Shown in pieces: positions 52,501-54,237 of a DNA stretch of 64,000 bases. Location of the stretch: assembly GCF_051903065.1 (NCBI RefSeq), contig NZ_CP178438.1. One strand, 5' to 3'. Position numbers and translations under genes: made by a program. Source of the DNA: Escherichia coli (GTDB lineage: Bacteria > Pseudomonadota > Gammaproteobacteria > Enterobacterales > Enterobacteriaceae). How positions within the stretch are numbered: position 1 is the stretch's first letter; the number at the start of each line of letters is the position of its first letter. Under the pieces are notes generated by a model. It had not been told where the DNA came from. It searched no databases and saw nothing but the letters and a program-made list of their open reading frames with translations.

Positions 52501-53169
52501 ATGAGAACAGGATGTGAACCGACCCGGTTTGGTAATGAAGCTAAGACCATTATTCACGGTGATGCCCTTGCCGAACTTAAAAAGCTACCTACTGAAAGCG
52601 TCGATCTGATCTTTGCCGACCCACCGTATAACATCGGTAAAAATTTTGATGGTCTGATCGAAGCCTGGAAAGAAGATCTGTTTATCGACTGGCTGTTAGA
52701 AGTGATTGCAGAGTGCCACCGCGTTCTGAAAAAGCAGGGCAGCATGTACATCATGAACAGTACGGAAAACATGCCCTTTATCGATCTCCAGTGCCGCAAG
52801 CTTTTTACCATCAAAAGTCGCATCGTCTGGTCATATGACAGTTCTGGAGTGCAGGCGAAAAAACACTACGGCTCCATGTACGAACCCATCCTGATGATGG
52901 TGAAAGACGCAAAGAACTACACATTCAACGGTGATGCTATTCTGGTAGAAGCCAAAACCGGATCGCAGCGCGCGTTGATCGATTATCGCAAAAATCCTCC
53001 ACAGCCTTACAATCATCAAAAAGTACCGGGTAACGTCTGGGATTTTCCGCGCGTGCGTTATTTGATGGATGAATATGAGAACCACCCGACGCAAAAACCG
53101 GAAGCCTTACTGAAACGCATTATTCTCGCCTCTTCCAACCCAGGCGATATCGTTCTCGACCCGTTTGCC
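52501..53169 (+). pseudogene. yhdJ: yhdJ (DNA adenine methyltransferase) truncated at its 3' end by IS1
   Basis: Encodes MRTGCEPTRFGNEAKTIIHGDALAELKK...DPPY... up to ...IVLDPFAG, then the frame runs into the IS1 terminal repeat (DAANLLI*). The SAM-binding C-terminal part is missing. Confidence 0.85.
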
Positions 53170-53224
53170 GGTGATGCTGCCAACTTACTGATTTAGTGTA
53201 TGATGGTGTTTTTGAGGTGCTCCA

Positions 53225-53500
53225 GTGGCTTCTGTTTCTATCAGCTGTCCCTCCTGTTCAGCTACTGACGGGGTGGTGCGTAACGGCAAAAGCACCGCCG
53301 GACATCAGCGCTATCTCTGCTCTCACTGCCGTAAAACATGGCAACTGCAGTTCACTTACACCGCTTCTCAACCCGGTACGCACCAGAAAATCATTGATAT
53401 GGCCATGAATGGCGTTGGATGCCGGGCAACAGCCCGCATTATGGGCGTTGGCCTCAACACGATTTTACGTCACTTAAAAAACTCAGGCCGCAGTCGGTAA
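53225..53500 (+). CDS. insA: IS1 InsA
   Basis: 91-aa [43 protein letters not shown]... Confidence 0.95.
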
Positions 53501-53922
53501 CCTCGCGCATACAGCCGGGCAGTGACGTCATCGTCTGCGCGGAAATGGACGAACAGTGGGGCTATGTCGGGGCTAAATCGCGCCAGCGCTGGCTGTTTTA
53601 CGCGTATGACAGGCTCCGGAAGACGGTTGTTGCGCACGTATTCGGTGAACGCACTATGGCGACGCTGGGGCGTCTTATGAGCCTGCTGTCACCCTTTGAC
53701 GTGGTGATATGGATGACGGATGGCTGGCCGCTGTATGAATCCCGCCTGAAGGGAAAGCTGCACGTAATCAGCAAGCGATATACGCAGCGAATTGAGCGGC
53801 ATAACCTGAATCTGAGGCAGCACCTGGCACGGCTGGGACGGAAGTCGCTGTCGTTCTCAAAATCGGTGGAGCTGCATGACAAAGTCATCGGGCATTATCT
53901 GAACATAAAACACTATCAATAA
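53419..53922 (+). CDS. insB: IS1 InsB (expressed as the InsAB' transposase by -1 frameshifting at the A-run at 53476-53481)
   Basis: 167-aa ORF overlapping insA in the -1 frame; ttaaaaaac slippery motif at the overlap. Confidence 0.9.
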
Positions 53923-54015
53923 GTTGGAGTCATTACCCGGTGATAAAATGGCATTCAGCTCGTTAATAAGAGAGTTAACTTATTAAGCGTTAGCGTTTAT
54001 TACTGAGGTAACACC

Positions 54016-54237
54016 ATGAAAAGATTAATTCCTGTGGCATTGCTCACCGCATTGCTGGCGGGCTGTGCTCACGATTCGCCCTGCGTTCCGGTTTATGACG
54101 ATCAGGGGCGTCTGGTTCACACCAATACCTGTATGAAAGGCACAACTCAGGATAACTGGGAAACGGCTGGGGCTATTGCTGGCGGAGCAGCAGCTGTTGC
54201 TGGCCTGACGATGGGGATCATCGCTCTGTCGAAATAA
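54016..54237 (+). CDS. yhdV: Small lipoprotein YhdV
   Basis: 73-aa ORF with a lipobox (LLAGC) and a Gly/Ala-rich C-terminus. Confidence 0.8.
   Translation: MKRLIPVALLTALLAGCAHDSPCVPVYDDQGRLVHTNTCMKGTTQDNWETAGAIAGGAAAVAGLTMGIIALSK

Follow-up and report, generated by a model that had tools for sequence, protein, structure and literature searches.

The region described here lies between fis and yhdV in a 64,000-nucleotide stretch of Escherichia coli DNA (NZ_CP178438.1; the whole stretch is hereafter called the window). In the window, fis is followed by the first part of yhdJ, a complete copy of the insertion sequence (IS) IS1, a short remnant of intergenic spacer and yhdV (Table 1). A preliminary description, made from the letters alone, had reported a complete 768-bp IS1 at 53170-53937 that interrupts the yhdJ frame after the codons for ..VLDPFAG, with yhdV starting 78 bp past its right end. 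The element was found exactly there, the frame is cut between codons 223 and 224, and the yhdV ATG is at 54016.

The IS1 has the length of the family (approximately 768 bp) and the imperfect inverted repeats of approximately 23 bp (GGTGATGCTGCCAACTTACTGAT / GGTAATGACTCCAACTTATTGAT) expected of it. Its own termini read GGTGATGCTGCCAACTTACTGAT in the left terminal inverted repeat (IRL) and ATCAATAAGTTGGAGTCATTACC in the right one (IRR), and a single match to the IRR pattern lies in the 64-kb window, with 0 expected. The insA and insB' frames, the A6C motif for the -1 frameshift, and the InsA and DDE domains are all present, with Pfam matches of the two open reading frames (ORFs) to PF03811 and PF12759 (InsA zinc ribbon and HTH) and to PF03400 (IS1 DDE). 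The copy shares 767 of 768 bases with the K-12 IS1A, the sole difference being at position 444, and it looks functional from its sequence. The preliminary description was also correct that the 9 bp on either side differ: no 8-9 bp target-site duplication is present, and the left flank (CCGTTTGCC) is unrelated to the right flank (CGGTGATAA). In scans for promoters and terminators, neither the junction region nor the acrF-yhdV spacer of K-12 gave more sites than shuffled sequence, with the exception of a promoter-like site inside the IRL.

From its ATG at 52501, yhdJ stays open for 669 nt (223 codons) and meets IS1 after 53169. IS1 itself begins with GGT, which is also the next native yhdJ codon; Gly224 is thus retained and the junction is ambiguous by 3 bp. 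The product ends in ...VLDPFAG-DAANLLI, with the stop codon inside IS1. The gene encodes M.EcoKII, with the recognition sequence ATGCAT, and its DPFAGS stretch is the S-adenosylmethionine (AdoMet)-binding motif I of the beta-class amino-methyltransferases. Of the two signatures of a complete domain, DPPY and the C-terminal motif I (FxGxG), the former is present as ADPPY, and the frame ends at DPFAG. Truncated YhdJ covers positions 1-192 of the 221-position PF01555 (N6_N4_Mtase) profile, compared with 1-218 in K-12 YhdJ. The earlier view that the AdoMet-binding C-terminus is lost is therefore reasonable, since the cut falls in the motif I region and shortens the Pfam match from 218 to 192. RefSeq labels the same gene in strain 23CRST027 as 'incomplete; missing C-terminus', a partial pseudogene adjoining IS1. 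On these grounds, the window yhdJ is a remnant and not a functional member of the beta-class N6-adenine methyltransferases.

Alignment to K-12 MG1655 showed what is missing. The annotated order in that strain is fis, yhdJ, yhdU, envR (acrS), acrE, acrF, yhdV, yhdW, which agrees with the order given in the preliminary description. The left flank of IS1 stops at K-12 position 3,412,321 (yhdJ nucleotide 669 of 885) and the right flank picks up at 3,418,312, 175 bp past the acrF stop and 78 bp before yhdV. The absent stretch is exactly 5,990 bp, in line with the 5-6 kb that had been anticipated between a left junction in yhdJ and a right junction just before yhdV. It contains the 3' end of yhdJ, yhdU, acrS/envR, acrE, acrF and 175 bp of spacer. 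A comparison with Combat11I9, a close relative that is intact at the locus and whose fis-yhdJ sequence is 100% identical to the window, gives the same gap of 5,990 bp. The locus thus has a single complete IS at the new joint, with contiguous reference DNA gone on one side of it. That acrE, acrF and acrS are truly absent, rather than hidden in an assembly gap, is of practical value for annotation and for resistome calls.

Population searches were carried out across 5,426 complete E. coli genomes, with 80-mers spanning each junction. The query comprising the whole IS1 plus its flanks was covered in three genomes. The right junction (IS1 to CGGTGATAA) was found in three, ECNB21-M121, 23CRST027 and 23CRST031; the left junction (yhdJ to IS1) was found in 23CRST027 and 23CRST031 only, so that both junctions occur together in two genomes. 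Over 60.4 kb, 4 mismatches separate the window from 23CRST027, with which it is collinear; against ECNB21-M121, the 53 kb left of IS1 also match with 4 mismatches, which are different from those of 23CRST027. The IS1 copies at the site are identical in the window, ECNB21-M121 and 23CRST027. In ECNB21-M121, yhdJ and yhdU are intact and the IS1 abuts ...AATTTACATGACACT at a point 12 nt inside the acrS 3' end; the deletion in that strain is 5,497 bp, and its left junction lies 493 bp from that of the window.

One junction is therefore fixed and the other variable among near-clonal relatives, which is the textbook signature of an IS-promoted adjacent deletion (PMC9330008). The common IS1, with a common orientation and right junction and differing left ends, indicates that the yhdV-side junction is the fixed one and that the deletions ran leftwards from the IRL. 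Most likely, as judged from these genomes, the IS1 was already in place upstream of yhdV when a deletion starting there extended into yhdJ, and a first insertion in yhdJ is unlikely. The window has no private single-nucleotide polymorphisms (SNPs), and 23CRST027 and ECNB21-M121 have 4 of their own each, a pattern that does not fix the order of the two deletion alleles. The window allele arose either separately from the common ancestor or as a second, 493-bp step from an ECNB-like intermediate, with three events each way. Approximately 27-36 places per chromosome match IS1 in this lineage, against a median near 9. To the right of approximately 59466, on the rrnD side, the window differs from ECNB21-M121 by an insertion/deletion and a cluster of mismatches, and matches 23CRST027.

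To survey the locus more widely, the 1,051 bp left of IS1 and the 1,051 bp right of it were joined into one query. In 26 of the 5,426 genomes the two flanks lie within approximately 1.5 kb of each other, and an IS1 is annotated at the joint in 25 of these. One representative of each span class was mapped to K-12 base by base, and the remaining genomes were placed in a class if their span and coverage were the same. The 25 genomes thereby fell into 13 distinct IS1-bordered alleles lacking acrEF (alleles being counted regardless of kinship), all without a target duplication; their junctions are listed in Table 1 in the coordinates of locus L006 (K-12). Smaller IS1-bordered deletions are present in SCU-172, in which 521 bp of the acrF 3' end are missing, and in GN25, in which 1,185 bp are missing, including acrS and the start of acrE. 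An internal control came from simple IS1 insertions in the vicinity of yhdV. Perfect 9-bp duplications flank all five (HH107, M172-1, JE86-ST05, ES8 and HCP6S3_I1), and none flanks any of the 15 IS1 copies that border a deletion at the locus. At this locus, IS1 without a duplication goes with deletion, and the missing duplication at the window IS1 is attributed to the deletion.

Table 1. Features of the yhdJ-yhdV region in the window, and junctions of the IS1-bordered alleles that remove acrEF (L006 coordinates, K-12).
Feature or allele	Window position	Strand	Left junction (L006)	Right junction (L006)	Remark
fis, intact	52119..52415	+			ORF; last clearly untouched gene on the left; annotated fis at the matching place in 23CRST027 and ECNB21-M121
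yhdJ, truncated (M.EcoKII adenine methyltransferase)	52501..53169	+			codons 1-223 of 294; DPPY kept, motif I (DPFAGS...) cut
IS1, complete (IS1A type), 768 bp	53170..53937	+			IRL facing yhdJ, IRR facing yhdV
IRL of IS1, left terminal inverted repeat	53170..53192	+			end from which the deletion is presumed to extend
Fused-frame tail within IS1	53170..53196	+			translation; Gly codon GGT, DAANLLI, stop
insA, 91 amino acids	53225..53500	+			Pfam Zn_ribbon_InsA and HTH_Tnp_IS1
insB' frame, DDE transposase domain	53419..53922	+			Pfam DDE_Tnp_IS1, E = 2e-78
A6C programmed -1 frameshift motif of IS1	53476..53482	+			RefSeq: 'programmed frameshift' on the same element in 23CRST027
IRR of IS1, right terminal inverted repeat	53915..53937	+			junction fixed, common to ECNB21-M121
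Leftover 78 bp of acrF-yhdV spacer	53938..54015	+			starts CGGTGATAA; K-12 3,418,312 onward, 175 bp past acrF stop
yhdV, 73-amino-acid lipoprotein, intact	54016..54237	+			ORF; WP_000825639.1, same protein accession in other genomes
Window / 23CRST allele			3322	9313	
ECNB21-M121 allele			3815	9313	
J31 allele			3616	9387	
EC931 allele			3955	9621	
LD27-1 class			2973	9387	8 genomes
PSJ-36 allele			2852	9098	
NCTC9112 class			3546	9928	3 genomes
NCTC9040 class			3289	9895	2 genomes
BKQWHE allele			3396	9928	
50EVA allele			3707	9926	
EcPF16 allele			3537	10017	
USMARC-51688 allele			2973	9928	
DJH pair allele			3833	10287	

Several junction positions recur among these alleles. Position 9387 serves as an IS1 junction in J31 (IS1B) and in LD27-1 (IS1A, opposite orientation), and positions 9926-9928 do so in BKQWHE, NCTC9112 (whose IS1 is only 91% identical), USMARC-51688 and 50EVA. 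The elements at the loci concerned (L012, L014, L017, L019, L021 and L023) differ in orientation and in sequence variant, and this exact reuse points to site-level hot spots for IS1 around yhdV. A second nested series is anchored on the left: LD27-1 (L017) and USMARC-51688 (L023) share a junction at yhdJ nucleotide 320, with the IS1 reversed, and their right ends differ (9387 and 9928, respectively).

Other rearrangements were observed at the same locus. In GN25 (L011, 7887-8654), the IS1 joins yhdU nucleotide 117 to acrE nucleotide 60, so that acrS is gone together with the promoter and the initial 59 nt of acrE; RefSeq still annotates a shortened acrE directly after the IS1. PCP06238 (L013, 7005-11765) carries an inversion that extends from nucleotide 246 of yhdJ to nucleotide 74 of acrF; it is bounded by two IS1 copies in inverted orientation, with the reciprocal 9-bp repeats GGCAGCATG and TGGCGATCC, and is the inversion counterpart of the window deletion. 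The O157:H7 strain F3113 (L015, 682-1806) has a 5,359-bp deletion without any IS, in which yhdJ nucleotide 437 is fused to acrF nucleotide 2417; the chimeric yhdJ-acrF frame is annotated 'efflux RND transporter permease subunit'. In HH107 (L004, 2879-4806), yhdJ, yhdU, acrS and acrE are missing from the fis-acrF interval, and their place is taken by a hypothetical gene and a partial phage terminase large subunit; acrF is intact, with the simple IS1 insertion downstream of it.

Overall, acrF is absent at acrF-level identity from 86 records, and the small IS1-bordered deletions account for approximately 30% of these losses. When the joined-flank test was applied to two control efflux loci, aaeR-aaeXAB (which lies inside the window) and acrD, a deletion was found in 0 of 5,426 genomes at each. 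The difference (26 versus 0 and 0) suggests that the acrEF segment is unusually prone to, or tolerant of, such loss, although the hot-spot statement rests on these two matched control loci only, and two controls are few. A crude uniform-density estimate for IS1 in the 8-kb region showed no enrichment by itself.

That IS1 mediated the deletion in the window is the statement that can be made safely. The preliminary description had gone one step further and called it an IS1-mediated adjacent deletion; the part played by IS1 is supported, whereas the adjacent route is not separable by sequence from recombination between two IS1 copies. Both routes are the usual causes of missing target duplications (PMC11708052). 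We favour an anchored insertion followed by an adjacent deletion, that is, a single IS1 from which a leftward deletion extended by intramolecular replicative transposition, and assign it a probability of approximately 0.6. An ancestral IS1 would have entered the AT-rich spacer between acrF and yhdV at a point 78 bp before yhdV, its insA end facing acrF, and its original target was presumably CGGTGATAA; in such an acrEF-intact ancestor the left junction would read ...ATAACCTCCGGTGATAA followed directly by GGTGATGCTGCC. The IS1 transposase would then have joined the IRL to a site inside yhdJ on the same chromosome, with the intervening 5,990 bp, including the left copy of the target duplication, being lost as a circle and one intact IS1 being left between unrelated flanks. 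The same anchored IS1 may have given the shorter, 5,497-bp deletion in ECNB21-M121 that ends at the acrS 3' end. We infer the order of events, the transposase-driven mechanism and a near-neutral effect on fitness. The active IS1 lineage supports this account, as does the IS1-bounded inversion in PCP06238, which is one possible product of intramolecular transposition. The GGT shared by the IRL and yhdJ was considered as a clue to the mechanism and set aside, since a 3-bp microhomology has a chance of approximately 1/64.

Several observations weigh against a leftward deletion from an anchored copy. The simple insertion that it requires as ancestor (IS1 at -78 with a CGGTGATAA duplication and acrEF intact) was not found in the 5,426 complete E. 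coli genomes, and exact-match scans for the IS1-yhdV junction among GTDB species representatives and metagenome contigs returned nothing. Furthermore, independent IS1 elements have used precisely the same junction positions elsewhere at the locus (K-12 locus positions 9387 and 9928), and a shared junction alone is thus no proof of common descent; that the shared right junction descends from one insertion is backed by near-clonality and by the identical element and orientation. Finally, RecA-dependent recombination of two direct IS1 copies leaves an identical sequence. In that scenario, one IS1 upstream of yhdV and a second, direct copy in yhdJ (or at the acrS 3' end in the ECNB21-M121 line) would have recombined with loss of the interval and of one IS1, which yields exactly the observed structure. 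Recombination between IS copies often explains missing target duplications (PMC11708052), identical IS1 copies are numerous in the lineage, simple IS1 insertions occur frequently around the locus, and the PCP06238 inversion with its reciprocal 9-bp repeats fits recombination of inverted copies equally well. However, each allele would need two extra events, an oriented insertion and a recombination, making four for the two alleles of the lineage, and neither the 28 loci examined nor the survey showed two direct IS1 copies enclosing acrEF. A search for hybrid IS1 sequence as a mark of recombination had no power to show a hybrid, as the copies in the three relatives are identical. We regard recombination between two copies as possible, and as a tentative second to the anchored-copy deletion.

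An insertion in yhdJ that came first, followed by a deletion running rightwards, would make the right junction of ECNB21-M121 an independent event at a hot-spot position. The reuse of positions 9387 and 9928 by independent elements lends this some plausibility, as does the series anchored on the yhdJ side that LD27-1 and USMARC-51688 form. Against it, the -78 right junction is confined to three near-clonal genomes of the 5,426, with an identical element and orientation in all of them, and no IS1 occurs at this yhdJ junction (CCGTTTGCC) outside the 23CRST pair; we consider this sequence of events very unlikely. Multi-copy IS1 elements often break or misjoin assemblies, and a collapse of repeats at the IS1 could in principle have brought distant contigs together. 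The same junctions are, however, present in two independent complete assemblies (23CRST027 and 23CRST031), the right junction is present in a third, and acrF is truly absent from the 86 records of the collection, which leaves a negligible chance of an artefact.

A deletion by an anchored IS1, as favoured here, closely resembles the classical IS1 adjacent deletions (PMC9330008), with a complete IS at the joint, no duplication, a start exactly at the IS terminus and a variable distal end; the classical deletions were selected in the laboratory, whereas the window event is deduced from natural genomes. The Lenski long-term lines (IS150) and E. coli C (IS5) likewise show a single IS amid a deletion without a duplication (PMC11708052), but the window has IS1, a natural lineage and a nested pair of alleles. 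Intramolecular replicative transposition by IS26 produces a deletion by attack in cis and an inversion by attack in trans (PMC4471558), the latter comparable with PCP06238, although IS26 belongs to another family, has another transposase and is found mostly in a plasmid setting. At acrEF itself, the available summaries report that IS1, IS2 or IS10 upstream of acrE activates acrEF (Kobayashi 2001, Jellen-Ritter and Kern 2001, Olliver 2005; via PMC4462101 and PMC9330008). As summarised there, activation shares with the window event the locus, the element IS1 and the H-NS-repressed region, but its effect is to turn on the pump of acrB mutants selected with drugs or solvents, whereas the window event removes the pump and its repressor. 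Adjacent deletions by IS1 are classical; at acrEF, the element has been described chiefly upstream of acrE, as an activator. The literature searched, whose coverage excludes subscription journals, contained no account of this deletion or of a recurrent loss of acrEF through IS1. The window allele is already present in RefSeq genomes.

The junctions of the alleles cluster in the lower-GC (guanine-plus-cytosine) parts of the locus, namely the segment with yhdU, acrS and the acrE promoter (33-46% GC) and the spacers around yhdV (41-46% GC). Between acrF and yhdV, the spacer has an AT content of 67%. The acrEF genes are under H-NS repression and show hardly any expression in laboratory culture, their deletion gives no resistance phenotype, and AcrS also represses acrAB (PMC4462101). 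H-NS-bound DNA is a transposition hot spot for elements of the IS5 family (PMC11335895), and by analogy such capture may extend to IS1; the pattern of acrEF loss fits, but does not prove, transposon capture by H-NS-bound DNA. The simplest reading is a neutral one, in which IS1-rich lineages harbour an AT-rich, H-NS-covered block of dispensable genes with important genes as its neighbours (fis on one side). It is improbable, in our estimate, that the locus is a true hot spot of repeated, independent IS1-bordered loss favoured by selection, whether through a rise in acrAB after the loss of AcrS or through the shedding of an H-NS-silenced pump; the alternative is that the losses are neutral by-products of an IS1 preference for AT-rich, H-NS-bound DNA beside dispensable genes. 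The present comparison gives no support to selection, for example via AcrS loss, and leaves room for it.

The predicted consequences in the window are the loss of the AcrEF pump, the loss of the AcrS repressor (also of acrAB) and the inactivation of YhdJ; under laboratory conditions all of these are silent or dispensable. When AcrB is lost, IS insertions switch on AcrEF in its stead, an escape route that is closed to lineages without AcrEF; its absence bears on the prediction of resistance evolution under efflux-inhibitor or acrB-targeting strategies. The single lesion is routine and strain-specific, and the wider population pattern, in which IS1 has taken out acrEF on many separate occasions in natural E. 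coli, is more useful. As interpreted here, the locus would illustrate clearly how one anchored IS1 copy gives rise to nested deletions in nature.

Elsewhere in the window, other differences from K-12 were noted. Between gltD and the yhcG homologue (8601-8654), 54 bp stand in place of 7,080 bp in K-12 (gltF, yhcA, yhcD, yhcE::IS5 and yhcF); the window lacks a second block of K-12 sequence here, and no IS lies at the joint. Downstream of yhdV, the homologue of yhdW (54668-55693), the substrate-binding protein gene of the yhdWXYZ amino-acid ATP-binding cassette (ABC) transporter, is intact and encodes 341 amino acids, whereas it is annotated as a pseudogene in K-12 MG1655. Between tldD and yhdP (33009-33255), there are 2.7 tandem copies of a 91-bp unit of the repetitive extragenic palindromic/bacterial interspersed mosaic element (REP/BIME) type, the copy number of which differs from that of K-12, as indicated by overlapping alignments.

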